Shown here: positions 1 to 63,812 of the stretch, one piece after another | Numbering within the stretch: the stretch's first letter is position 1 | Layout of the letters: each line of letters opens with the position of its first letter | Assembly (NCBI GenBank): GCA_026417895.1 | Contig: JAOACJ010000009.1 | Span: 2,128 to 66,127, forward strand | Direction of reading: 5' to 3' | DNA length: 64,000 bases | DNA from: Patescibacteria group bacterium | GTDB taxonomy: Bacteria; Patescibacteriota; Patescibacteriia; UBA2591; CALHIP01 | Position numbers and translations under genes: made by a program | The notes under the pieces: model-generated | The model's database searches: none | What the model saw: the letters and a program-made list of their open reading frames with translations, nothing else | Told to the model about the DNA's origin: nothing

Positions 1-755
1 GATTAAAATCTCACCTTGATTAGAGGCGGCAGCTAAAATTGCCATTGTTCCTGCTTCAATTCGATCGGGAATAATTTTGCATTCCCCACCCTTTAGTTCT
101 TTAACTCCTTTGATTTTAATAGTTGGGGTACCCGCTCCCTCAATTTTCGCTCCGGCTCTTTTTAGATATTCAGACAAAGCCACAATTTCTGGTTCCATGG
201 CACAATTTTTTAAGATGGTCGTGCCTTCGGCTAAGCAAGCGGTCATCATTAAACTTTCTGTGCCGGTTACGGTAATTTTAGGAAAGAAAATTTTTGTTCC
301 TTTTAATTTTTTTGCTTTTAGGCTATAATATTTTTCAGAAATTTTAACTTCTGCGCCCATCTTTTTAAAACCTTCTAAAAACATATCGATTGGCCGACTG
401 GCAGCGCCAATGACACAGCCACCAGGATGAGGAAAGCGAACCTTACCATAGGAAGCCAAGAGTGGACCAACAAACATAATCGAGGCACGGAATTTACTTA
501 CTAAATCAACCGGTAAATTCGTTGATGTTAGCCTCTTAAAACTAATTTCAAAAACTCCCCTTTTGAGTCTTTTTACTTCGCCACCAAGGGCTATTAACAA
601 TTCTTCAGCTCTCCGACAGTCTTCTATTTCTGGCACGTTGATCAGGCGGATTTTTCCTCGAGTAATTAAAGCAAGGGGGAAGATTTTTAAAGCAGCGTTT
701 TTTGCTCCAGAAACAGCAATTTCCCCTTCTAAAGGTCTATTGCCTTCAATAATAA
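1..755 (-). CDS. murA: UDP-N-acetylglucosamine 1-carboxyvinyltransferase MurA, 5' part; the gene runs off the window start
   Basis: Manual minus-strand translation from ATG (plus-strand 'cat' at 753-755) gives MAKFIIEGNRPLEGEIAVSGAKNAALKIFPLALITRGKIRLINVPEIEDC... It stays open to the window edge and reads as a MurA/EPSP-synthase-fold N-terminus. Not in the ORF track because no stop lies inside the window. It overlaps the weak plus-strand ORFs 77..328 and 563..787. Confidence 0.75.
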
Positions 756-791
756 ACTTAGCCATAGGAAAATATTATATCATTTAATAAA

Positions 792-10548: not shown

Positions 10549-12528
10549 TTATTTATAATTGATTAATTGAACATATTTTCCTTCTTTTCTAAACGGCTTA
10601 AACCTGACACCACCTCCTTCCATAAATTTGGGGAAGAACTCAACAAATTGAAGACGAGCCGAATGAATAAAAGCACCCAAGGCATTTATCCCAATATTGA
10701 AAAGATGTCCGCCAATTAAGATAAAGATAGCCAAGATAAAACCAACAAAAGGAATCATTTGGCTGAAAATTTTGGCAATCAGATTGATGACCATACCAAT
10801 AATACTAGTGGCTAATCCCAAAGCTAAAAGTCGAGAGTAAGAAAGTGTATCAGAAAGATAACCAATTAAGCCGTAAAGACTTAAAACGCCAGCCGGAATT
10901 TTTAAGAAAATATTTTTTTGTTTCCGACCTTGAGTCAGGACAACTAAAATAAGACCGATCAAAACTAAATATTTGGCTAAATTGTGAGAAATAGAAAGAA
11001 ATTTACTTTGAGAACCGATAAAGATTAACAACGAACTAATCAAAAATATCCATGGGCCATTATCTAAAATGGCATTCAGGGTGTCTTTATTTTTTATTTT
11101 CCAATACAGATTAATTATTAAGCCAGCCAAAATTTGAAAGACACCTAAAACCAAAGAAATAATTAAAAGCTGTAAAGGATTCTTGATCGGATCAATGATT
11201 CTTATTTGAATCAAAAATTCTTTAACTGGTTTTAAAAATTCTGGCAAAGTTTCCAATTCCAAACCAAACCAACTACCCAAAATGGCACCAATAAAAATAG
11301 TCGTTAGTCCTAACCAAAGGAAAAGTCTAAAAAAATTTTTTGTTTTTTGGGGTAAATTTAAGAACTTAATTATAGTTATCGAGATGATGGTTAAAACTAA
11401 ACCATAGCCAGCATCAGAAAGACAAAGGGCGAAAAAAAGAACAAAAAATGGTGTTAAAAATGGAGTTGGGTCCGGCTCATGATATTTTGGCACCCCATAG
11501 ACATTGGTCACTGTTTCAAAGTCATTAACAAATTCCTTATTTTTTAGAAGAACTGGTACTTCTTCATCTGCCTTGACTGGCATTTCAATGATTTCAAACT
11601 CTGGCGTAATTCTTCTAAGCCCACTTTGAAGATCGGGCAATGAGTCCTTAACAACCCAAGCAAAAAGGAAGAGGGTAAAATTAGTTTTCTGGATTTTTTG
11701 TTTCACTTCTTCTTTTTCTTTTTGCCAAGAAAGCCAATCAAAGATAATTTTTAATTTTTCTTGTTGATTGGCTAAACGAGAAATTTTTCTTCTTACGATT
11801 TTCATTTTTGGCTCTAAAATTGCCAATTCATCTTCTAGGCGTTCAAAATATTGAGCTGGCGAAGATTTAAAAGGTGGTAATTCTATTTTTATAAATTGAT
11901 TTTCTTCTAAAAATTTCAATAAGTCTTTCTCTGTGACTCGATCAAAAATAATCAAACAATAAACATCTTTTTCTAACTGATCAACTTTGATGACCTCAGT
12001 TAATTTAATTTCATTTTTTATTTTCTCTAAAAATTTTGGCCAATTGATCAAAGAAATTTTCCCAGTCAAAAAAGAAAAATTTTTAGTCTTTTTTATCTCC
12101 GCTAAATTTAAATCTAATTTTCGCCAAGGATAAACTTTTTCTTTTTCTTCTTGAATTTTTTTAATTTTAGAAGAAAGAGTGGTAAAATCCATTTCCAATT
12201 TTTCTGTCTCTTGAATAATCATTGCCCACGGTGTTTGAGAAACCGTTTTGTTTAATTCTTGTTTGGTCAGTTTAATTTTTGGTGATAAAAAGGTTGTAAT
12301 TTTTTGCTTTAAACTGACCTTCTCTTTTTTTTGATAGGGTGCTAAAAAATCAATGGCAAATTTTACTCTAGCTAATTGATAGTTTAAATCAATCATCTCT
12401 TTTTCTTCTCTGTGGCCCTCGCCTAAATCAATGATCTCAACGGTGCCAAGTTCCTGTAAAAAACTCAAAATTTCTCGTCGAAATGATTTTGAAGCAACCA
12501 AACAAATTTTTTTTAATTGAGCGACCAT
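10549..12528 (-). CDS. atpI: V/A-type ATP synthase subunit I (a-subunit)
   Basis: 659 aa with a hydrophilic N-terminal half and a multi-TM C-terminal half, in the I slot. Confidence 0.85.
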   Translation of the reverse strand: MVAQLKKICLVASKSFRREILSFLQELGTVEIIDLGEGHREEKEMIDLNYQLARVKFAIDFLAPYQKKEKVSLKQKITTFLSPKIKLTKQELNKTVSQTPWAMIIQETEKLEMDFTTLSSKIKKIQEEKEKVYPWRKLDLNLAEIKKTKNFSFLTGKISLINWPKFLEKIKNEIKLTEVIKVDQLEKDVYCLIIFDRVTEKDLLKFLEENQFIKIELPPFKSSPAQYFERLEDELAILEPKMKIVRRKISRLANQQEKLKIIFDWLSWQKEKEEVKQKIQKTNFTLFLFAWVVKDSLPDLQSGLRRITPEFEIIEMPVKADEEVPVLLKNKEFVNDFETVTNVYGVPKYHEPDPTPFLTPFFVLFFALCLSDAGYGLVLTIISITIIKFLNLPQKTKNFFRLFLWLGLTTIFIGAILGSWFGLELETLPEFLKPVKEFLIQIRIIDPIKNPLQLLIISLVLGVFQILAGLIINLYWKIKNKDTLNAILDNGPWIFLISSLLIFIGSQSKFLSISHNLAKYLVLIGLILVVLTQGRKQKNIFLKIPAGVLSLYGLIGYLSDTLSYSRLLALGLATSIIGMVINLIAKIFSQMIPFVGFILAIFILIGGHLFNIGINALGAFIHSARLQFVEFFPKFMEGGGVRFKPFRKEGKYVQLINYK

Positions 12529-12821
12529 AATCTTTTAAAAATTAAGTTTTTAGCTTTTTCTTTTTTTGCCATTTCTAATTTTTTAATTTCGTTTTTCTGT
12601 TTCTCTTTTTCTATTTTTTCTATTTCTTTAATTTTTTCTTCCGCTGTCTTTCTAATTTTTTCTATGGTCGGAGCCATTATTTCTGGTAAATTGGCTAAAA
12701 TTTCAAGCTGTTTTTTTTCTTGAAAAATAATTCTCTCTTGCCCTTCTTTTTCCGCCTTTAAAATAGCTTCCTCTGCTTCTTCTTCTGCTCTTTTGATTTT
12801 TTGAATTATCTCTTCGCTCAT
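12513..12821 (-). CDS. V/A-type ATP synthase subunit G/H (peripheral stalk)
   Basis: 102-aa charged coiled-coil protein (MSEEIIQKIKRAEEEAEEAILKAEKE...) and the first gene of the operon, as in the Thermus-type order G-I-K-E-C-F-A-B-D. Confidence 0.65.
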   Translation of the reverse strand: MSEEIIQKIKRAEEEAEEAILKAEKEGQERIIFQEKKQLEILANLPEIMAPTIEKIRKTAEEKIKEIEKIEKEKQKNEIKKLEMAKKEKAKNLIFKRLWSLN

Positions 12822-15776: not shown

Positions 15777-15788
15777 AGATTTTAGTTA

Positions 15789-15823
15789 TTGGTTTTTGGT
15801 TATTGGTTATTGGTTATTGGTTA
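15789..15823. repeat. heptanucleotide tandem repeat TTGGTTA x5 (first unit TTGGTTT)
   Basis: Read directly from the sequence. It fills most of the 44-nt gap between the rplK stop and the UXS-like start, and the last unit overlaps the rplK stop codon. Confidence 0.9.
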
Positions 15824-21302: not shown

Positions 21303-21983
21303 TTATGATTTTAAATTTTTAATCACGATGACGAATTCTCCTTTTATTTTATCATTTTTTATCTTTTCTGTCACCTGACTAATTGTTCCGCGATAAATCG
21401 TTTCAAATTTTTTCGTCAATTCGCGAGCAATAACAATTTCTCGTTCACCGCAATGATTTTTTAAATCAGCTAAGGTTTTGAAAAGACGATAAACTGATTC
21501 GTAAAGGACAATAGTTTCTTCATAAGTGGTCAATTTCTTAAAAAATTTTTCTCGTTTCTTTTTGCTGGGTGGAAAGCCTAGAAAAACAAATTTATCACTT
21601 GGCAAACCAGAAATACTTAAAGCAGTAACTAAAGCACAAGGGCCGGGAATGGGCACAATTTTTACTCTCTCACCCAATTTTTTCACCACTTCTTGAATCA
21701 ATAAATTTCCTGGATCAGCAATCCCTGGTGTCCCAGCCTCAGAAACTAAAGCCAGATTTTTACCTTGTTTTAATAAAGCAATAATATCATCAATTTTTTT
21801 CAATCTTGAATGTTGGTGATAAGAAATCAGAGGTTTTTTGATTTGATAACGATCAAGTAAAATTTTTGTTTTTCTTGTATCTTCACATAAAATGAAATCA
21901 ACCTCTTTTAAAACTTTAAGAGCACGCAGGGTGATATCTTCGAGATTGCCAATCGGTGTGGCGACAAGATAAAGAATTGACAT
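21303..21983 (-). CDS. rsmI: 16S rRNA (cytidine1402-2'-O)-methyltransferase RsmI
   Basis: Tetrapyrrole-methylase fold with MSILYLVATPIGNLEDITLRALKVLKEVDFILCEDTR. Confidence 0.85.
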   Translation of the reverse strand: MSILYLVATPIGNLEDITLRALKVLKEVDFILCEDTRKTKILLDRYQIKKPLISYHQHSRLKKIDDIIALLKQGKNLALVSEAGTPGIADPGNLLIQEVVKKLGERVKIVPIPGPCALVTALSISGLPSDKFVFLGFPPSKKKREKFFKKLTTYEETIVLYESVYRLFKTLADLKNHCGEREIVIARELTKKFETIYRGTISQVTEKIKNDKIKGEFVIVIKNLKS

Positions 21984-23522: not shown

Positions 23523-24932
23523 TTACTTTTCTTGCCAACGGGTAGGTGGCAAGCAAGTTGACTTGCCTGATTTCATATAGCCATAAGGTGATTCCTGATA
23601 AGGCGGACAAAGAGGTTCAAGACAGGAAAGAGCCGTCACCCAATAGTGATAATTGACGTTCGCAATAATACTTTTGTCTTCATAAGCACAAAGGCTTTCA
23701 CCACAAACATCCTCGGGTCTAATATTTTCGGCAATTCTTCGACACTGTGATAGTTCACAGTCATTTCTATTGTCTTTATTTTTGACTGCTCGATAAACAT
23801 TATAGCCAACCGCCCCTCCGACTGGTAGCCATTGAACAGTTATTTCACCGCACTTTGAAGAGAGAATTGGCTCCAGAGGCTGTGATGGCGCGCATAAAAC
23901 CGTTGTCCCAGAAGCAGCATCACTGATTATTCCGTCACCGTTTAAATTCCAGGCTTGAACTTGATAGCGATATATCTGTCCACCGCTTAAACCAACATCT
24001 TGCCATTTACATATATCACCACTACAATCAACCTCATTGACAGAAATATTGGCAATAAGGACTCCATTTGTCTGTGGATTACACCCCTCACCCCGACAAC
24101 GATAAATTTTATAACCTTGAGCACACTTAGTTGGTGGTTGCCAATTTAAAAGTAAAGACTGACAATTTTGAGAAACCGATCTGACGGTTAAATTTCTTAC
24201 CTGATCAGGTGGATTTTTTAAACAATAACTTTGATAAGCACCGAGCCAGCCTAAACCAGCACCAGTAATTTGTGGATTATAAGTTGAACTCCAGGCAAAA
24301 CCTGTTAATTCTTTATGATTAAAACCAAAATCTTCTAAAGAAAGACCATAGCTAATACCGCCAGTTGTCTGTCCTCTTAATTTAATCCAGCCATCAGTTG
24401 TTGGTGACGACCAAACTACCTTTGCCCAACCAAAAACTTTTTTGCCTTCCCCAAGACAATTAGTGCCCGAAACATTTTCTCCTTTGCAAGCCCAAGGAGT
24501 AAAATTATCAGGTGAATTAATAAATGAACAAGTCCCACAACCTTCGCAAGTAATATAATTACTACAACTTGGACAATGAGCACACTTACAGGTCTCACCA
24601 AAACAAATCCAGCCAACATTTGGTGACCAACCATAACCAGAAATTTTATTGGTGGAAGAATCTAATTTTAAGCCGTAATTGATATTAGTTGGACAATTAT
24701 TTTCCGGTTGACCATCATTGTTATAGTCGTTATAACAATTCAAAGAAATCCAGCCAATGCCACCCGGATAACTGCCATCACTTCTACTCCAAAGCCAACC
24801 ACGGATGTTATCACTCCTCCCCCCTTGAACTAAATGTGGTTTTTCTATGTGAAAAACAAAAAATAATAAAGCAGCCGCCCCTATGAGACTTAAGATTAAT
24901 ATAAAAACTTGTCGTAACCAAATATTTTTCAT
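23523..24932 (-). CDS. Cys-rich secreted protein with C-terminal fibronectin-III-like domains
   Basis: N-terminal TM/signal segment, many Cys with Trp/Gly motifs (GWICFGETCKCAHCPSCSNYITCEGCGTC), and two FN3-like modules (GYKIYRCRG...YRYQVQAWN; ITVQWLPVGGAVGYNVYRA). Confidence 0.5.
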   Translation of the reverse strand: MKNIWLRQVFILILSLIGAAALLFFVFHIEKPHLVQGGRSDNIRGWLWSRSDGSYPGGIGWISLNCYNDYNNDGQPENNCPTNINYGLKLDSSTNKISGYGWSPNVGWICFGETCKCAHCPSCSNYITCEGCGTCSFINSPDNFTPWACKGENVSGTNCLGEGKKVFGWAKVVWSSPTTDGWIKLRGQTTGGISYGLSLEDFGFNHKELTGFAWSSTYNPQITGAGLGWLGAYQSYCLKNPPDQVRNLTVRSVSQNCQSLLLNWQPPTKCAQGYKIYRCRGEGCNPQTNGVLIANISVNEVDCSGDICKWQDVGLSGGQIYRYQVQAWNLNGDGIISDAASGTTVLCAPSQPLEPILSSKCGEITVQWLPVGGAVGYNVYRAVKNKDNRNDCELSQCRRIAENIRPEDVCGESLCAYEDKSIIANVNYHYWVTALSCLEPLCPPYQESPYGYMKSGKSTCLPPTRWQEK

Positions 24933-35121: not shown

Positions 35122-35150
35122 CCAAAAAATCGCCTTTTTGGCGACTTTTA
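35122..35150 (-). terminator. short GC hairpin (tcgcc-5 nt-ggcga) with flanking T/A runs; weak candidate terminator or attenuator between mraY and murD
   Basis: aaaaaatcgcctttttggcgactttta at 35122-35150. Read on the minus strand it is followed by UUUUUU. Confidence 0.3.
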
Positions 35151-40827: not shown

Positions 40828-40886
40828 AAATTTTAAGAAAAAGTTATTTTAATTTTAAGAAAAAAAGTATAACATATTATCATTGT

Positions 40887-40914
40887 TTGTCAAAATGAAA
40901 AAATTGTGTATAAT
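40887..40914 (+). promoter_or_regulatory. sigma70-like promoter (TTGTCA-16-TATAAT) upstream of rpmE-prfA
   Basis: ttgtca at 40887-40892 and tataat at 40909-40914, about 130 nt upstream of the rpmE ATG. Confidence 0.45.
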
Positions 40915-41046
40915 TAGTTTATCAAAATAATATAATTTTCTTGTTTTCTGATACCAATATGAACGACTTTCTGTCACAAAGATTGACCCAGAGATCTAAC
41001 AATTTCAACGTTCTCATAACAAAACAAGGCTTCTTTATATAAAATT

Positions 41047-41289
41047 ATGGCAAAAAAAGAAAAAAATCAATACTATCCCTATCCAGAAGCAAAAATCATT
41101 TGTAGTTGCGGCAATGTCATGAAGGTCGGTTCAACAGTCAAAGAAATGCATGTCGAAATTTGTTCGCAATGTCATCCTTTTTATACGGGGAAACAAAAAT
41201 TTATTGACACGGCTGGTCAATTAGAAAAGTTTCAGAAACGATTAGCAAAGAAAAAATTGCTGGAGAAAAAAGAAGGAAAGAAAAAATGA
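41047..41289 (+). CDS. rpmE: 50S ribosomal protein L31
   Basis: CxxC...CxxC zinc ribbon (CSCGNVMKV...[10 protein letters not shown]). Confidence 0.85.
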
Positions 41290-46092: not shown

Positions 46093-46100
46093 AGGAAGAT

Positions 46101-46129
46101 TTGATAGCTTTTAATAAAATAGTTATAAT
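46101..46129 (+). promoter_or_regulatory. canonical sigma70 promoter TTGATA-17-TATAAT
   Basis: ttgata at 46101-46106, a 17-nt spacer, tataat at 46124-46129, about 40 nt upstream of the 46171 ORF. Confidence 0.55.
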
Positions 46130-46170
46130 ATTATAACAATTATATCTTATTAATAAAATTTGTAAAACTT

Positions 46171-54671: not shown

Positions 54672-55320
54672 GGCCAAACAAAATATAGATATAAACACTT
54701 AAAATCAAAAAAATCAGAGGCACGATGTTCCAGAAAAAATTAAAACGAATAATCGTGTTGTAAAGCCCATGAAAACCAACAGCCAAAAAAAGACTGCCCG
54801 CAAGAATAAATTTTTTGTTTTTAGGTTGGAAAAACTTTACTTCCCCTAAATGATAGCCTATGATACCGCTGGCTAAAACATGCATTAAGGTTGGAGTGGC
54901 AAAACGAAGGACGATTAATTGCGGCCCACTCGAAAGCAAATAGAAAAAATTTTCAAAAAAAGCAAAACCAGTGGCGACGGTTACGGCGTAAACAAAACCA
55001 TCTAATGGTTCATTAAAAACCTTACGGTCATAAACGCCCTCTTTCAGGATAAGATATTTAGCAAATTCTTCAATTAAACCATCAACGAAAAATGAGATAA
55101 TAATGATATAAAAAAAATAGTTGACAGCAATTTTATCTAAAAAAAATTTTAATCCCTGGGCCAAAACTAAGGTCGGCAAAGCAATCATAATTCCCAGTAA
55201 GAAAACTCTTAAAATTTCCTTGATTGGCTCTGGGTTTTTTTTATCAATTCTTCGAGCAATAAAAAGCCAAAAAAGACTTGGCAAAAAAGAAAGGGATAAA
55301 ATTAAAACATATTTATTCAT
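54616..55320 (-). CDS. PrsW-family intramembrane protease
   Basis: Multi-TM protein with EEFAKY, FENFFY and HxxxxxxG-type motifs. Confidence 0.6.
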   Translation of the reverse strand: MNKYVLILSLSFLPSLFWLFIARRIDKKNPEPIKEILRVFLLGIMIALPTLVLAQGLKFFLDKIAVNYFFYIIIISFFVDGLIEEFAKYLILKEGVYDRKVFNEPLDGFVYAVTVATGFAFFENFFYLLSSGPQLIVLRFATPTLMHVLASGIIGYHLGEVKFFQPKNKKFILAGSLFLAVGFHGLYNTIIRFNFFWNIVPLIFLILSVYIYILFGLKKTSREQHPLSQKALFS

Positions 55321-55762
55321 CGAGTGGTAAAATTTTAATCTTTAAAGAAACTGTGAGGGAGAGAGAAAGTCTAATTTTTATCTCATTATCGCCAATTGTT
55401 TTAATTGGTTCAAATTTTTCAATTTGTTCTTCTCGAATAAAAATATCTTTCTCTTTTAATTGAGTGACAATTCTTTCGGCGTTAATCGAACCATAAAGCT
55501 TACCTTCAGGATTAACTTTTTCTTTAAAAACTAATTCTAATTCTTTTATTTTTTGAGCAATTAGTTGAGTCTTTTTTTCTTCTCTCTTTTTTCTTTCTTC
55601 TTCTAAAGTTTTTTTTCTTTCAATTTTTTCGATCTCGTGTGGTGTGGCTAAAATCGCTAATTTCTTTGGTAGTAAAAAATTTCTGGCAAATCCATCAGCT
55701 ACCTCTTTAATTTCATCTTTTTTGCCAAGATGATTGACGTCTTGTAATAAGATGACTCGCAT
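55313..55762 (-). CDS. rplI: 50S ribosomal protein L9
   Basis: MRVILLQDVNHLGKKDEIKEVADGFARNFLLPKKLA. Confidence 0.9.
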   Translation of the reverse strand: MRVILLQDVNHLGKKDEIKEVADGFARNFLLPKKLAILATPHEIEKIERKKTLEEERKKREEKKTQLIAQKIKELELVFKEKVNPEGKLYGSINAERIVTQLKEKDIFIREEQIEKFEPIKTIGDNEIKIRLSLSLTVSLKIKILPLDE

Positions 55763-55813
55763 AAAAATAGACTTAAAAATATATTCTCCTCCTCGCGGTT
55801 AAATATCACGATC

Positions 55814-55873
55814 AGTATAAAGAGCAGCGAGATAAAGAGCAGCGTGATAAAGAGCAGCGTGATAAAGAGCAGC
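55814..55873. repeat. four tandem 15-bp direct repeats (G/A)(T/A)GATAAAGAGCAGC
   Basis: Read directly in the divergent intergenic region between rplI and the 56085 ORF. Confidence 0.9.
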
Positions 55874-55903
55874 CTTGTTATTGGTAATAAAGAGATGTCG
55901 AAA

Positions 55904-55983
55904 ATATCTATAAGTATCTATCGGTATCAATCAATATCCATGAATATCTATCGATATCTATCAATATCTAAGGTATCTTGACT
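55904..55983. repeat. eight degenerate 10-bp helical-phase repeats (A/G)TATCTATCR
   Basis: atatctataa / gtatctatcg / gtatcaatca / atatccatga / atatctatcg / atatctatca / atatctaagg / tatcttgact. Confidence 0.85.
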
Positions 55984-56005
55984 TTTTTGCAAATTTTGCT
56001 ATCTT
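55978..56005 (+). promoter_or_regulatory. candidate promoter TTGACT-16-TATCTT for the 56085 ORF
   Basis: ttgact at 55978-55983 and tatctt at 56000-56005. Two GC-rich hairpins at 56013-56070 follow in the leader. Confidence 0.35.
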
Positions 56006-56084
56006 GAAAATGTCGGGTTAGTCGCCTCTTCGGCGACTAAATCCAAGCCCGACCATCCGCTGTAAGCGGATGATGGAGGAAAAA

Positions 56085-57545
56085 ATGAGAAGTTTGACAT
56101 TGTTGATAATCTTGTTGCATTTTCTTGTTTTCTCGACTTCGGCGGCGACCGCGCAAACATGGTGGACTTACGAGGAACTCGGTAACGCCGCGCCTTGTAA
56201 GGGGATCGAAACGGAAAACGGATATGTCCATACAGGGGGCACCTTTAACGTGCCGGGTGGAGGTTGTTACTTAGCAAAAACCAATAAAGTAACTGGTGCT
56301 CTTGACTGGTATCAATATTATCCCAGTCTCTTTTTCGAGCAAAGTTGGGGATATGATTTAGTCCAGACGCCAGATGGTGGCTTCGCTATTCTTTCTACCG
56401 ATGATATGGGTTTCGGCAATGTCTTTAGACTGATTAGGACGAACCCGATGGGAGAAAGTTTGTGGAACAAATTGATTGCCCCTCAAAATCAAGCCGTTGC
56501 CGCTCCTTATTATCTCGTTCTTTTTTCGCCTGATTCTGGATTTATTATGGGCGGTCGAAACGATGGAGGAATTATTATGGCCCGGACGAACAAGTACGGG
56601 GAAACGCTATGGACGCGTCGCGGGGTGGCAAGAGAAAGTATTTACCGTTCTATGGAAGTCAGGGGCATAATAACAAAAACAAACACGATCATCTATCTCC
56701 TTGGTTTAGCAACTGTTGATTTGCCAACCGGACAAAGCATTTGGCGAAGTTTTTTGGCAACAATTAATGCTGCTGGACAAGTGATTAATAAAAGGGAATA
56801 TGTTGACGAGTGGCAAAGAATGGTGCATTTATATGGTCAAACCTTTTTTCAACTTGATAATTCCGGCTTTCTAATAGCTGGTATAAGAGGCGTCGCAAGT
56901 TCTAGTGCAAATCCTGTTGAATCAATTTTTGTTTTTCTTTTGAAAACCGACTCTTTGAAAAATGAACTCTGGAGAAAGATGTATTTTTTACCAAGCATAC
57001 ACAGTGATTTTTACAGGTGTGGCGTCGAAAAAGTTTGGCAAAATGAAAATACGATTAATATTGCGGTTTGCTTTTATAATTCGTCATTGTTCCCGAAAGG
57101 GGGAATTATTACCACGGATTTAGAGGGCAATTTTCTAAACTGTATCACCTACTCCCATCCGATTTATACCTATGTTTCTTTAAGAGACGCTATGAAAACA
57201 AGTGATGGACACGCAGTTTTAGCTGGACGCTCTCCTCCAGCCGGACCCCCAGCTTATGTGACCCTTCTTAAAACTCCTTTAAGTGGCATTAGTGAAAATT
57301 CTTTTTTCTCTTCCCAATTCTCTACTCTTAAAGTTTTTCCCAATCCAAGCACCGGCTTAGTTAATTTTCACTTGCCAACTGGGTACAACAGCAGCAAAGT
57401 AAAAATCTATGATGCCACCGGAAGAATAGTCAAGACATTCGAATTTCAAAATCAATTTCGGGTGAAACTTTCACCCGGCATCTATCTCTGTGAGACCGCC
57501 GCTGAGACCGACGCAAAATTTAAGATTATCATCCTGGGACAATAA
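56085..57545 (+). CDS. secreted repeat (beta-propeller-like) protein with a C-terminal T9SS sorting domain (Por_Secre_tail)
   Basis: RBS GGAGG five nt before the ATG at 56085, and a signal peptide. The C-terminal 70 aa (LKVFPNPSTGLVNFHLP...KVKIYDATGRIVKTFEF...SPGIYLCE...KFKIIILGQ) fit the T9SS CTD consensus. GC is well above neighbouring genes. Confidence 0.6.
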   Translation: MRSLTLLIILLHFLVFSTSAATAQTWWTYEELGNAAPCKGIETENGYVHTGGTFNVPGGGCYLAKTNKVTGALDWYQYYPSLFFEQSWGYDLVQTPDGGFAILSTDDMGFGNVFRLIRTNPMGESLWNKLIAPQNQAVAAPYYLVLFSPDSGFIMGGRNDGGIIMARTNKYGETLWTRRGVARESIYRSMEVRGIITKTNTIIYLLGLATVDLPTGQSIWRSFLATINAAGQVINKREYVDEWQRMVHLYGQTFFQLDNSGFLIAGIRGVASSSANPVESIFVFLLKTDSLKNELWRKMYFLPSIHSDFYRCGVEKVWQNENTINIAVCFYNSSLFPKGGIITTDLEGNFLNCITYSHPIYTYVSLRDAMKTSDGHAVLAGRSPPAGPPAYVTLLKTPLSGISENSFFSSQFSTLKVFPNPSTGLVNFHLPTGYNSSKVKIYDATGRIVKTFEFQNQFRVKLSPGIYLCETAAETDAKFKIIILGQ

Positions 57546-57568: not shown

Positions 57569-59233
57569 TTATTCAGGAGTTCCTGGTCCGCAATCAAGCT
57601 GCCAATCACACATAGAACAAGTTTTTTGAACCGCTCGATAGAAAATACAAGATCGGCTATCGCCTACTTTACAACTATCACAACGAGGATGGCTATAGGC
57701 ACCGGCTATCTGGAAATCAGGTAAATAAGAAACACTACTTCGACAAGTACCCCAGAAAGTACCTCCTGTTAAACAAGGAGGTTGATCACAACTAATAGTC
57801 GAAGAACAACAAACCCCTCCGCAACATTGATACCCAGAAGGACAAGTTGGGGAGCTACAAACTTCTGTTGATAAATCTACACAATGTGGAATTGGACATT
57901 CGCTTGGATTATTTGGATCACAATTACAACACCGACCAGTACCGGTACAATAATAATAATCAGAATAAGGACAACATCTGTTTTCACAAGCGCAATGACC
58001 AGAAGAACAATTTGATACAGTACATGGAGTACCTGCTCGACAAAAACCACTAACACAAGTTTGAGTTCCGGGATAACTACATATACCAAAAGGAGGTGTA
58101 GGATCGTTGCCTTCACAGACCTCACCACAATTACGAATCCCATCACCACAAGAAGTAACCCAATTACCTGATAAGTTAGGATCACACTTTTGCCGGGCTA
58201 TGCTTGGATGGCAACTATTGGGAATTACAGAAGCATTACTATCATCACAATCACCTCTTTGAATTGGACCGGTGTAATTTGGGTAATTCAGTGTATCTGC
58301 TTCTCTATAACCCGTACCAAGTTGAAGACAATCGGTGTCTAATGGATACCGACCCGCGATTTCAAAATTACCGAGATATTTGTCTGAATCAGAGTCGCGT
58401 ACGCAAATTTTGGCAGGCATCCCATTAATACTATCTGGTCTATTCCAGCCAATCAAAATAGAAGGGTTGGTAGTATATGGACCAAAAACAATTTTTCCGG
58501 TGCCGGTCAAATCAACACCCTTGTTTGTTCCTTTGGTAGCAAAAATCAAATAAGCTGGTTTTTTCTCTTGCAAATTCAAAGGATTCACCCAGCCACTCAA
58601 GTTAACGGTGGCACTACCAATAACCAGTCGGCCAGTTTCTGTGCCAATAACTAAACCTCTCTCTGGACTCTGACTATCAGTAATTAAACTACAGGATTGA
58701 GTAAGAGTTAAATTACCAATCCATAATGGACAGGTGTTCTGAGGAGCCCAATCTAATTCCAGTTTATCTTCCCTCCCTTCTTTATTTTTTACCAAAAAAT
58801 TTGTCCAAACAATTTCTTCTATTTCTTTAGGTAAAACTATTTCCGCCTGCCAAACTGATTCTTTTTCATCATAGCTCATAAACATCTCTTTTTCAAAATC
58901 TGGACGGGCAATGATTTTAAATTTCACCTCCGCTAAACCAGCTGGGTCTTCAATTTTGATTTTCGCCCAAATTTTTTCACCGCCCTTTACTTCCCTTGGC
59001 CGTTTGGAAAAAATACCGCCTAAAAATTTTGGATAAACACCTGGTGCCGAGGAAACACGAAAAGCATATTCACTGTTTTTTGGTTTCTCGGTCGGTTCAA
59101 AATGGTTCAGTTTTTCAATCTCTTCTTCGCTCAAAACATAGTTTTTTTGTTTTTCGACTTTGGAAGTTTGCCAAAAGAATAAACCTAAAACAACGAAAAC
59201 CAAAATAATGATGAGAGGAATGATTTTTTTCAT
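57569..59233 (-). CDS. very Cys-rich secreted protein (Myxococcus-type CxDG...GExCDDGN-like repeat); last gene of the pilus operon
   Basis: N-terminal TM anchor. The C-terminal 250 aa are about 20% Cys (CGDGIRNCGEVCEGND..., CCGGVCCSS...). Confidence 0.5.
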   Translation of the reverse strand: MKKIIPLIIILVFVVLGLFFWQTSKVEKQKNYVLSEEEIEKLNHFEPTEKPKNSEYAFRVSSAPGVYPKFLGGIFSKRPREVKGGEKIWAKIKIEDPAGLAEVKFKIIARPDFEKEMFMSYDEKESVWQAEIVLPKEIEEIVWTNFLVKNKEGREDKLELDWAPQNTCPLWIGNLTLTQSCSLITDSQSPERGLVIGTETGRLVIGSATVNLSGWVNPLNLQEKKPAYLIFATKGTNKGVDLTGTGKIVFGPYTTNPSILIGWNRPDSINGMPAKICVRDSDSDKYLGNFEIAGRYPLDTDCLQLGTGYREADTLNYPNYTGPIQRGDCDDSNASVIPNSCHPSIARQKCDPNLSGNWVTSCGDGIRNCGEVCEGNDPTPPFGICSYPGTQTCVSGFCRAGTPCTVSNCSSGHCACENRCCPYSDYYYCTGTGRCCNCDPNNPSECPIPHCVDLSTEVCSSPTCPSGYQCCGGVCCSSTISCDQPPCLTGGTFWGTCRSSVSYLPDFQIAGAYSHPRCDSCKVGDSRSCIFYRAVQKTCSMCDWQLDCGPGTPE

Positions 59234-59263
59234 AGACGTAAAAGTTAATTTTTAATTTATTTT

Positions 59264-60676
59264 TTATCTCACTTTTAAGCCTGAAGTGTTTTGATCTGAA
59301 GCTAAATTGGTTGCCCGGCCCGGCCAATCAAAACGGGGAGCAATTAAACGATAGGAAACATTAATCGGGGCGGTGCCGTAAATGAGAAGTTGATTTTTTG
59401 TGGGTTGAAATTCATACCAAACTTGTGCCCGTCCCTCGGGTGTTAAATTCACCACTAAATCCTGCCAATTTTGACCAAAGGCTGTAATCTGGCGAAAAAG
59501 CCATAAATCAGAACCTTTTTCTGTTCGGTTAAAATCAATAGTCGCTAAATAAATTTGATTTTCAACTTCTGGCATTTGAAATTTGTCATTTGACATTTGT
59601 AAACGAAGTTTGCCCACCACCTCTTCTTTTAAACCAACCGTTGAATGGCCATAAGTGGCATATTTTATTCCTTCAATTTCATAAATTGGATCGATTTCAT
59701 TGACTAAGAGCTTACCGGCCGGGCTTAAGGTCATAATAGGCGTTGATCCATAACCACCATCTTTATACCAAGCAAAAGTGCCACTGTTAGTAACAAAACG
59801 GATCCATTCACCAGAGCCCTGAGAATACAATCCTAGATCAGTCCCGGAGATGGCGTTCGTACCTTTTTGAATAATACCATTTCTTACATTGATCGCGCCA
59901 TTGATATCTAATTTTTGAATCGGACTGGTTGTCCCGATGCCGACGTTGGTGCCGTTGTTAAACAAATTACTATCTGCGACCCAAGCACTTCCACTGTGTC
60001 TGAGCGTTTGACCAGTAGTTCCTGAAGGCAAAAGTCCTGAAGGTAGAGAACAAGTCAAGGTTGGTCCTACTGCCGTGACATATTGACCTGACGGACAAGC
60101 AGAAGGAAATGAAGTTAAACGTGCCCATGGAACCGAACCGCCTTGAAGAATGCCAGTCCACCTCACGTCACCACTTACATCTAATTTATATCCTGGACTG
60201 GTTGTTCCGATGCCGAGATTACCGGTCGGTAAAATTGTGAATCGATCATCGTTATTTGTTCCACTACCCCAGAAACGAAGGCTATTATTTGATTTATTCA
60301 CATAAATAGCCCAATGATCATTAGTCCCTGTTCCATATTTAAGTTGCAACTCTGGATTTTCATTGGTGTCAGTATCAGTAATTCGCAAACGACAAGTTGT
60401 GCCACTTGGAGCAGTAAGTTCCATTCTTTCGGCTGGATTGACCGTCCCGATTCCTAATTGGCCATTAAATAAGACATTACCTGATTGAAGTGTTCCCGGT
60501 AAAGAACCTTGTAACCAAACCGGTCCGGGTAATTGGCCTTGTGGTGGTGGTTGGGTTGGCTCCTGCCAAGTCTGAGCCAAAACTGCAGGAATGGCTAAAA
60601 AGAAAAGTGATAAAGCCAGTAAAAAGAGTCGACCAAATAACCGGCTTTTTTTAAAGAAGAAAGTTGCTTTTTTCAT
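59264..60676 (-). CDS. secreted tail-fibre-like repeat protein in the PilY1 position of the minor-pilin operon
   Basis: Signal peptide (…AVLAQTW). Repeated motifs GQLGIGTVNPAERMEL, GNLGIGTTSPGYKLDVSGD and GTNVGIGTTSPIQKLDINGA are typical of phage tail-fibre / beta-helical adhesin repeats. Confidence 0.5.
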   Translation of the reverse strand: MKKATFFFKKSRLFGRLFLLALSLFFLAIPAVLAQTWQEPTQPPPQGQLPGPVWLQGSLPGTLQSGNVLFNGQLGIGTVNPAERMELTAPSGTTCRLRITDTDTNENPELQLKYGTGTNDHWAIYVNKSNNSLRFWGSGTNNDDRFTILPTGNLGIGTTSPGYKLDVSGDVRWTGILQGGSVPWARLTSFPSACPSGQYVTAVGPTLTCSLPSGLLPSGTTGQTLRHSGSAWVADSNLFNNGTNVGIGTTSPIQKLDINGAINVRNGIIQKGTNAISGTDLGLYSQGSGEWIRFVTNSGTFAWYKDGGYGSTPIMTLSPAGKLLVNEIDPIYEIEGIKYATYGHSTVGLKEEVVGKLRLQMSNDKFQMPEVENQIYLATIDFNRTEKGSDLWLFRQITAFGQNWQDLVVNLTPEGRAQVWYEFQPTKNQLLIYGTAPINVSYRLIAPRFDWPGRATNLASDQNTSGLKVR

Positions 60677-60702
60677 AGGCGTAAAAGTTAATTTTTAATT
60701 TA

Positions 60703-63002: not shown

Positions 63003-63812
63003 TTATATTTTTCCAAAAAAAGACAAAAAAATCAAATCACCAAAAAATAGGGTCATTACGCCGCCAACAGCTAAAAATGGGCCAAGAGGAATTTTAGAGG
63101 TCAACTTTTTTTGATGAGTGATGAGAAGAATTAAAGAGGCAAAACCACCGAGTAGATAAGAAATGACTAAAACAACTAAAATTTTTGGCCAAGCAAAGGT
63201 TAAACCCAATAGCAAACCTAAACGTAAATCACCTTCGCCAATTCCTTTTTTCGCCGTCAAAAGATATTGAAGAAGAAAAAACCCAAAACCAAAAAAACCG
63301 CCGAGCAGAAGAGTAGTTAAGTGATAAGTTGTTGAGTTAATGAGTAAAAGGTTAAGGAGAAAAATGACAATGGTTGCTGGAATAACAACAGTATCTTCGA
63401 TTAACATATATTTCAAATCATAGACAAAAATAAAAACCATCACTGTTAGAAAAAGCCAATCGCGAAGAAGGAAAATTGAAAATTGAAAATTGGAAATTGG
63501 AAATTGGGGATAGATGGATAAAAATTGATGAGATAATTTCAAAGAGGCCAATAAAAATAAAGCGCCTGTTGTCAGTTCAATTAATGGATATTGCCAGGAA
63601 ATTTTTGCTTGACAATAGCGGCACCTACCCTTTAAAAATAAAAAGGAAAAAAGCGGAATTAAATCAAAAAAAGAAAGCCGGTGTTGACAAGCCGGACAAA
63701 AGGAATAGCCAAAAAGGCTCTTTTTTTGTGACAAACGATAAATCAGGCAATTTAAAAAACTGCCAATGGCTAAACCAAACAAAAACGAGAAAAGGGCAAA
63801 TAAGAAAACCAT
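63003..63812 (-). CDS. pilD: prepilin peptidase (A24 family)
   Basis: N-terminal helix, zinc-binding CPACQH...CRYCQ box and the A24 TM core. Confidence 0.85.
   Translation of the reverse strand: MVFLFALFSFLFGLAIGSFLNCLIYRLSQKKSLFGYSFCPACQHRLSFFDLIPLFSFLFLKGRCRYCQAKISWQYPLIELTTGALFLLASLKLSHQFLSIYPQFPISNFQFSIFLLRDWLFLTVMVFIFVYDLKYMLIEDTVVIPATIVIFLLNLLLINSTTYHLTTLLLGGFFGFGFFLLQYLLTAKKGIGEGDLRLGLLLGLTFAWPKILVVLVISYLLGGFASLILLITHQKKLTSKIPLGPFLAVGGVMTLFFGDLIFLSFFGKI
63471..63505. repeat. heptanucleotide tandem repeat (GAAAATT x3, GGAAATT x2) inside pilD
   Basis: Read directly. On the coding strand it encodes QFPISNFQFSIF. Coordinates are +/-1. Confidence 0.85.

Follow-up and report, generated by a model that had tools for sequence, protein, structure and literature searches.

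A probable divergent control region with a conserved, structured 5′ leader between rplI and a T9SS-type secreted-protein gene in a Patescibacteria genome

Experimental knowledge of promoters, leaders and regulators in Patescibacteria (also called candidate phyla radiation, or CPR) is nearly nil. Here we describe a 322-bp region (55763-56084) between rplI and a gene for a secreted protein with a type IX secretion system C-terminal domain (T9SS-CTD), located in a 64-kb stretch of Patescibacteria contig JAOACJ010000009.1 (hereafter the window, with 58 open reading frames, ORFs). With moderate confidence, we read this as a divergent transcription-control region that combines a conserved, structured 5′ leader with a candidate operator array. 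The region was enlarged by lineage-specific tandem repeats and is neither a replication origin nor a plasmid relic. Its elements are of kinds already known (5′ stem-loop leaders and tandem-repeat operators), to which this locus adds an instance. An earlier note on the sequence had listed two repeat arrays, a candidate promoter and two hairpins here, and all of these are present where they had been placed, beyond chance expectation.

Results and discussion

A promoter and leader conserved in a homologous locus

A search of 5.8 billion clustered proteins returned one close homologue of the T9SS-CTD protein, P0002 (50% amino acid identity), encoded on a 2,019-nt Logan contig of unassigned taxon (L081). 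Comparison of the two loci, together with repeat, promoter and folding analyses of the window, yielded the following features.

55763..55799, minus strand: proposed short rplI leader, 5′-AGGAGGAGAAUAUAUUUUUAAGUCUAUUUUU-AUG, with a putative start (sequence, L081 homology)
55808 to 55800, minus strand: candidate extended -10 for a leftward rplI transcript, TGATATTTA (L081 alignment)
55817..55876, no strand: four tandem 15-bp repeats, (G/T)ATAAAGAGCAGC(GA/GT/GT/CT) (Tandem Repeats Finder, TRF; repeat families D2 and D3)
55903..55977, plus strand: eight TATC units of about 10 bp, consensus RRTATCTATM (TRF; repeat family D1)
55978..56005, plus strand: sigma-70-type promoter with -35 TTGACT (55978-55983), 16-nt spacer and extended -10 TGcTATCTT (55997-56005) (promoter scan)
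56012..56053, plus strand: leader domain 1, from the predicted start G56012 (RNAfold; same architecture in L081)
56012-56018 paired with 56047-56053, plus strand: domain 1 outer stem (RNAfold)
56019-56026 paired with 56032-56039, plus strand: domain 1 inner hairpin, loop 56027-56031 (RNAfold)
56040-56046, plus strand: conserved 3′ internal loop AAUCCAA (RNAfold, L081 comparison)
56054..56072, plus strand: leader hairpin 2, CAUCCGCU-GUA-AGCGGAUG (folds of both loci)
56073..56087, plus strand: conserved block AUGGAGGAAAAAAUG, with Shine-Dalgarno (SD) sequence GGAGG (56075-56079), 5-nt spacer and ATG (56085-56087) (L081 alignment, folds)
56085..57545, plus strand: secreted protein of 486 aa that has a signal peptide and, at its C-terminus, a Por_Secre_tail domain, T9SS-type (Pfam PF18962, E = 1e-08)

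The candidate promoter of the earlier note was recovered as TTGACT-16-TGcTATCTT, matching 9 of 12 consensus positions in addition to its TG extension, and TTGAC-N15-19-TATNTTGAAA occurs nowhere else in the window. Judged by its sequence, this is a strong promoter. L081 carries TTGACT-16-TGtTATGTT with identical spacing, and in both loci six nucleotides follow the -10 before a stem opens (as GGUCGGG in L081). The stem thus begins at the 7th nucleotide after the -10 in both, which in the window is G56012; transcription is predicted to start at this base, at a canonical +1 distance, though the start itself is a prediction only.

The two GC-rich hairpins fold exactly as the earlier note had drawn them, the second ending 2 nt before GGAGG. 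Hairpin 2 directly adjoins domain 1, making coaxial stacking of the two possible in the modeled structure. RNA from 56012-56095 has a minimum free energy (MFE) of -36.5 kcal/mol (z = -5.06), and none of 200 shuffled sequences was as stable. The L081 leader adopts the same two-domain fold (-28.2 kcal/mol, z = -3.35), and a covariance model derived from only the window sequence recovers it at 40.9 bits (E ~1e-9), with no other match in the window or in the loci of relatives.

Base-pair changes between the two loci indicate that this fold has been kept by selection. When the loci are aligned under guidance of the model, standard pairs fill every one of the 44 cells that make up the 23 pairs; sliding the partners by 1-3 columns lowers this to 23-44%. 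Both sides differ in four pairs (U.G to G.U, A-U to G-C, G-C to C-G and C-G to A-U), a single side differs in four more, which gain or lose a wobble (G-C/G.U or U-A/U.G), and no pair is disrupted. Pairing is 100% in helices 1 and 2, with three two-sided and two one-sided wobble changes, while the 8 pairs of helix 3 include one compensatory change (C-G to A-U), two wobble changes and no disruption. Since G.U pairs correspond to A/C mismatches on the other strand, selection appears to act on the plus-strand RNA and not on the DNA. The four compensatory and four wobble changes, together with the stability of both folds, support the suggestion of the earlier note that the downstream mRNA carries the hairpins as an RNA element, as judged from the gene's sole close homologue. 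The covariation evidence is good, short of conclusive. Beyond the paired positions, the 3′ internal loop (AAAUCCAA in the window, AAAUUCAAA in L081) and the junction GACCAUC are conserved, and the hairpin loops differ.

Searches for further copies returned none. A profile protein search with the window protein and P0002 found no further close relatives, and the upstream regions of two distant homologues (L082 and L086, 25-27% identity) were unrelated. In JGI metagenome contigs the leader block AAATYCAARYCCYGACCATCMGCT had no matches, and the pattern TATCTTGACTTTTT-N13-19-TTGAAA had 74, all unrelated and all lacking the leader and the TATC array. Scans of viral contigs gave one chance match in a GC-rich phage and none for the leader block. 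The best match in a scan of GTDB representatives for ribosomal protein L9 was 47% identical, so those representatives include no close genome. Exact-match queries with the proteins of the window returned no record.

The earlier note had also pointed to a recurrence of the inner-hairpin sequence. TCGCC-N5-GGCGA does recur at 35130-35144, with no bearing on the present element: the recurrence lies in a hairpin at 35124-35150 (A6-TCGCC-T5-GGCGA-CTTTT) between convergent murD-like and mraY-like genes, which looks like a bidirectional intrinsic terminator. Because of this terminator-like arrangement of A-run, stem and T-run between two genes, we consider the likeness coincidental and ruled the hairpin out as a second copy. 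Upstream of its TATC units, L081 contains two repeats unrelated to those of the window: an imperfect inverted repeat at 153-223 (26-nt arms with 7-bp units, TTACGCT three times and AGCGTNA four times) and a 24-bp direct repeat at 59-102 (CAGTAAGA-N6-AGCAAGG, two copies).

Translation start and the downstream gene

The leader runs into an SD block that is identical over 20 nt in L081 save for one mismatch after the ATG, and GGAGG is unpaired in the MFE and centroid folds of both loci. The start codon is likely ATG 56085 (signal peptide MRSLTLL...) rather than ATG 56070, and the NCBI start at 56070 (491 aa) probably lies 15 nt upstream of the real one. NCBI names the product, from a Patescibacteria metagenome-assembled genome, 'T9SS type A sorting domain-containing protein'.

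This gene stands apart from its neighbors in two respects. Its GC content at third codon positions (GC3, 0.392) is the highest of the 58 ORFs (mean 0.275, sd 0.036, z ~+3.2). SD-like sequences occur at -20 to -4 in 4 of the 58 ORFs and are lacking in 54, and the sole full GGAGG at canonical spacing belongs to the T9SS-CTD gene. Beyond P0002 its homologues are more distant (33% identity or less); they occur in Ignavibacteria and Bacteroidota, and among them are proteins named in their sources as Ignavibacterium and Chitinophagaceae T9SS proteins.

Two tandem arrays of different age

The eight 10-bp helical-phase repeats that the earlier note placed in an AT-rich tract are present, with TATC cores at 55905, 55915, 55925, 55935, 55945, 55955, 55965 and 55974. 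TRF reports period 10 with 6.8 copies at 55903-55970 (score 80) and a 30-bp super-period (score 97), and the GC content of the array is 27%. The last box overlaps the -35 at 55978, so that the array runs into the promoter. TATC-N6-TATC-N6-TATC is found only here in the window (chance expectation 0.21), and the 167 fetched loci do not contain it. The array aligns with about 5-6 degenerate units of 8-10 bp at L081 385-440, an alignment that includes a 16-nt match (TATCTATAAGTATCTA in one locus, TATCTATAAGTAACAA in the other), and the box overlapping the -35, GTATCTTGACTTTTTT, is fully conserved though the encoded proteins are only 50% identical. Because of this alignment, we regard the TATC array as ancestral; in the window it was homogenized and grew from about 5-6 units to 8. 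The TATC boxes are most likely operator or activator sites of a DNA-binding protein that would serve both divergent promoters.

The 15-bp array has a different history. At 55817-55873, TRF finds period 15 with 3.8 copies, 97% matches and a score of 107, the highest of 121 TRF rows in the window, confirming the four tandem direct repeats of the earlier note. The two inner copies are identical, the edge copies deviate by 1-2 nt and a degenerate fifth copy lies at 55884-55899. Allowing up to 2 mismatches, the 13-mer core GATAAAGAGCAGC has 7 matches in the window where 1.43 are expected, and the four good ones are all local. These repeats are absent from L081, in which the flanking homologous sequences adjoin directly: window 55772-55820 is homologous to L081 361-403 (local score 34 versus 20.4 +/- 3.3 for shuffles, matched by 1 of 300), and L081 361-403 directly abuts the TATC boxes there. 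The four 15-mers, the fifth copy and a spacer (~85 bp in total) are therefore intercalated in the window relative to L081, as an insertion or lineage-specific tandem expansion. Identical inner copies with degenerate edges are a pattern typical of recent tandem duplication, and upstream of rplI in three relatives the 15-mers are likewise absent, with no repeats there. The 15-mers may have arisen as a neutral expansion, may separate the divergent promoters as a spacer or insulator, or may serve rplI as an operator. The proposal in the earlier note that both arrays are binding sites thus holds plausibly for the TATC repeats, which are partly conserved in L081 in both position and sequence, and fails for the 15-mers as conserved iterons, these being unique to this genome.

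It could be argued that both arrays are neutral minisatellites produced by replication slippage in a long spacer, with only the core promoter and leader of consequence. The near-perfect 15-mers, with their identical inner and degenerate edge copies and their absence from L081 and the rplI relatives, fit this explanation well. Moreover, RNA structure in the repeat region does not exceed expectation for either strand (z = +1.89 and +0.20), and no regulator gene was found nearby. Extending the explanation to the TATC boxes is harder, since degenerate TATC units occupy equivalent positions in L081 and the box overlapping the -35 is perfectly conserved despite 50% protein identity. In addition, the other intergenic regions of this genome are very short, suggesting that non-functional DNA is purged. 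We consider neutrality of both arrays unlikely, while giving it some weight. None of the true intergenic stretches between the roughly 59 genes of the window is longer than these 322 bp. The nominally longer gap at 40828-41285 (458 bp) is filled for the most part by an 80-aa ORF at 41047-41289; this ORF lies between rpsB and the release-factor gene, is absent from the 100-aa ORF listing and by eye looks like ribosomal protein L31 (rpmE).

The leftward side and the origin of the gene

The region also appears to drive rplI. A purine block, GAGGAGGAG (CTCCTCCTC on the plus strand, 55786-55794), lies about 23 nt upstream of the rplI ATG (55762), and its L081 counterpart, AGAGGGG, is followed by a minus-strand ATG ~23-26 nt further on. 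At the position of TGATATTTA, L081 carries TGATATTTT, and the block AAATATCA is conserved in the alignment. TGnTATAAT-type -10 elements near start codons are common in this genome, and because this TGn-extended form is so common we propose a leftward promoter at TGATATTTA, which would now give rplI transcripts a leader about 31 nt long. A rival leftward promoter, TTGATA-16-GATATT, was found by the promoter scan inside the TATC array (55930 to 55903). A weak likeness between the sequences upstream of rplI in the window and in relative L165 (CGCGA..AGAAT), considered as a possible ancestral promoter, was set aside in favor of the statistically supported homology with L081.

Within the 45 nt upstream of the 58 ORFs, a TGnTATAAT-type -10 lies, for many genes, as close as 9-25 nt to the ATG (for example 21303..21983, 12513..12821, 63003..63812 and 23523..24932), a distance that implies leaderless transcripts or very short, AT-rich leaders.

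Gene order places the region at a synteny breakpoint. In three relatives (L164, L165 and L166; L9 identity 76%, 69% and 56%), the order is murA-ctpB-rplI, with rplI following a co-oriented ctpB after a spacer of 16-81 nt; the nearest of them (76% identical) lacks the region. In the window, rplI (55313-55762) faces the T9SS-CTD gene, and murA (1-765, minus strand; assigned from L164 synteny and by eye) and the ATPase operon are syntenic with L164, yet lie 55 kb from rplI. Since the relatives keep ctpB and rplI adjacent and murA is 55 kb away, the breakpoint falls directly upstream of rplI. This breakpoint, the top GC3 value, the lone canonical SD and the distant Ignavibacterium and Chitinophagaceae T9SS homologues together suggest that the T9SS-CTD gene and its control region were probably acquired horizontally.

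A bolder interpretation would make the region a self-contained, horizontally mobile expression cassette that travels with a T9SS-CTD beta-propeller surface-protein gene and comprises the TATC operator array, back-to-back TGn promoters and the structured leader. In this scenario, rplI captured the leftward promoter after insertion at the breakpoint, the arrays then expanded and retuned or insulated the promoters, and the internal loop binds a dedicated RNA-binding regulator, so that the SD-carrying leader would be a previously undescribed structured RNA. We put this forward as speculation and doubt that it is correct in full.

A proposed function for the leader

Our data suggest a mechanism in which a module running from 55772 onward, and thus making up most of the 322 bp, accompanies the T9SS-CTD secreted-protein gene. 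The ~10-bp TATC boxes, lying on one helix face, would run into a strong sigma-70 promoter whose transcripts start at G56012, where a very stable stem-loop leader of two domains (56012-56072) begins. If G56012 is +1, the transcript begins inside the outer stem, and pairing of the 5′ terminus would most likely shield the mRNA from 5′-end-dependent decay while the leader holds the adjacent GGAGG and start codon single-stranded, allowing efficient initiation. The leader would thus act as a stabilizer and an insulator that presents a strong SD. A protein bound to the TATC boxes would serve both divergent promoters, with rplI driven leftward by the conserved extended -10 of the same module, and growth of the arrays would have moved the promoters from ~50 bp to ~175 bp apart. 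Such a role has precedents: pairing of the 5′ terminus is the classical defense against decay of this type, 5′-terminal stem-loops stabilize bacterial mRNAs, and a 5′ stem-loop with ribosome binding stabilizes mRNA carrying the aprE leader (Emory et al. 1992; Bouvet and Belasco 1992; Hambraeus et al. 2002, as cited in PMC3997798).

A stable, conserved leader might instead be a switch (a riboswitch, an RNA thermometer or a protein-binding operator) that hides and exposes the SD. Conservation of the unpaired internal loop in sequence would suit such a device, and the window inner hairpin contains CCUCU, which could pair with GGAGG. However, this candidate anti-SD is not conserved, L081 having CCCAAAAGGG in its place; the SD is single-stranded in the MFE and centroid folds of both loci; the hairpin loops are unconserved; and neither hairpin is followed by a terminator or U-run. 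Across the window, Rfam 15 yielded nothing at the gathering threshold; for 55700-56200, loosening the cutoff to E <= 10 brought up only snoRNA and miRNA matches of chance level. The scan for tRNA and tmRNA was empty, so the leader is not tRNA-like. A switch is thus less likely than a stabilizer, and on balance quite unlikely.

Several observations weigh against our interpretation of the region as a control region with a stabilizing leader and operator array. The predicted +1 at G56012 is placed only by its spacing from the -10. The covariation comes from two sequences only, and 32 of 500 shuffle controls reach the observed values; indeed, only two instances of the module were found, the window and L081. 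The conserved internal loop (AAAUYCAA) hints at specific protein recognition or a tertiary contact, which a pure stabilizer would not need. As for the arrays, the TATC motif matched no known operator, no regulator gene is present among the ORFs of the window and the 15-mers may be functionless. Finally, the 16S anti-SD motif is missing from roughly half of Parcubacteria (PMC9297842), and if the host lineage is among those without it, GGAGG would be unable to act as an SD.

DNA shape and replication as alternative roles

The TATC tract could act through DNA shape, as curved DNA or as a UP-element-like activator contacting the alpha subunit of RNA polymerase, given its 10-bp period, its 27% GC and its position (-5 to -75), which borders the -35 on the upstream side. 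Its predicted curvature is nonetheless unremarkable (31st-77th percentile of the window in the Bolshoy-Trifonov wedge model), which argues against a pure shape role and for sequence-specific binding. It also has no A-tracts, TpA and GATA steps break the runs of A/T, and the invariant TATC core resembles a recognition sequence. We therefore hold a shape-based role to be very improbable. The 15-mer array has very low curvature in the same wedge model.

The earlier note had raised an origin-like or plasmid-derived element as well, and this idea failed every test run (skew, DnaA boxes, genes and plasmid/phage blastn). GC skew has no inflection at the region: cumulative skew is flat at 55-57 kb, moving from -3.60 to -3.55 across 53-57 kb, and reaches its minimum of -4.28 at ~44-46 kb, where the sign change coincides with a switch in gene orientation (~45-46 kb). 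DnaA boxes (TTATCCACA-like, <=1 mismatch) number 18 in the window against 16 expected, with none inside 55763-56084. The neighbors are miaB, prsW, rplI, the T9SS-CTD gene, secreted proteins and pilins, with no dnaA, dnaN or other origin-linked gene among them. Pfam scans of the 58 ORFs found no Rep, Par or relaxase, and no rep, par, dnaA, integrase or transcription-factor gene; every ORF is a housekeeping or surface gene. In distant-mode blastn, there were no matches in PLSDB (72,556 plasmids) or INPHARED (50,697 phages). An origin or plasmid iteron, with the 15-mers as Rep- or DnaA-binding iterons and the 10-mers as a DNA-unwinding element, is thus extremely improbable: its layout of tandem direct repeats beside an AT-rich (27% GC), phased tract is only superficially similar, the setting is one of housekeeping genes, and the 15-mers are missing from the homologous L081 region, in which promoter and leader are conserved.

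The skew minimum itself (~45-46 kb; intergenic 46093-46170) falls at a divergent orientation switch just upstream of dnaE, with no DnaA boxes and a plus-oriented block of only ~8.5 kb, and is probably an effect of operon orientation rather than an origin.

Genomic context and other sequence observations

By Pfam, the window contains a V/A-ATPase operon, gyrB, nusG, rplK, secE, metG, mur genes, gap, tsf, rpsB, a release factor, dnaE, thrS, miaB, prsW and rplI. To the right of the region lie genes for secreted proteins, type IV pilin-like proteins and a prepilin peptidase. Two adjacent secreted-protein genes without a Pfam match (57569..59233 and 59264..60676) share a near-identical 5′-proximal sequence of ~25 nt, AAATTAAAAATTAACTTTTACG(T/C)CTATGAAA, at 59234-59263 and 60677-60702 on the minus strand, which suggests paralogous translation-initiation regions or leaders. 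Elsewhere, the short spacer between rplK and a downstream epimerase gene holds a 7-bp tandem repeat (15780-15823, GTTATTG, 5.6 copies, TRF score 71-72).

Significance and comparison with known systems

The locus offers a compact, testable case for gene expression in Patescibacteria, bringing together a sigma-70-type promoter, a covarying 5′ leader, a candidate operator array and a probably acquired surface-protein gene. A canonical GGAGG amid 54 of 58 genes without an SD-like sequence bears on how acquired genes are translated in SD-poor CPR lineages. The practical value is modest: the origin or plasmid hypothesis and an annotated start codon are corrected, and a candidate RNA motif with two members is gained.

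Plasmid iterons and centromere-like arrays, such as R1 parC, in which 11-bp repeats flank a promoter, share with this locus the placement of short tandem direct repeats at a promoter. They differ in that our locus has no rep or par, no DnaA boxes and no similar plasmid DNA, lies in a chromosomal housekeeping context and has 15-mers that are not conserved. Variable-number tandem repeats in promoters of surface-protein genes, for example the 7-bp repeats upstream of Haemophilus influenzae hmw and the TAAA tract of Neisseria meningitidis nadA, resemble the window arrays as near-perfect short repeats upstream of such a gene, produced through lineage-specific expansion. The units in the window are longer (15 and 10 bp), the host is an uncultured Patescibacteria bacterium and the copy number is known from a single genome.

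The TATC array can be compared with the tandem direct-repeat operators of winged-helix response regulators, such as the OmpR sites F1-F3 at ompF and the PhoB boxes, which likewise consist of head-to-tail 10-11-bp units on one face of the helix that touch or overlap the -35. Unlike these operators, the window array has eight units, exceeding the usual number, a TATC core that corresponds to no known box, a position between divergent promoters and no cognate regulator among the window ORFs. For the leader, the nearest parallels are the Escherichia coli ompA 5′ untranslated region and the Bacillus subtilis aprE leader. The window leader is unrelated to these in sequence, has two domains that abut and an asymmetric internal loop that is conserved, belongs to a genome that hardly uses SD sequences and has a predicted start. 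It nevertheless shares with them a predicted hairpin at +1, a short length (~73 nt), a strong, exposed SD directly after the structure and a secreted or surface protein as the product of the gene.

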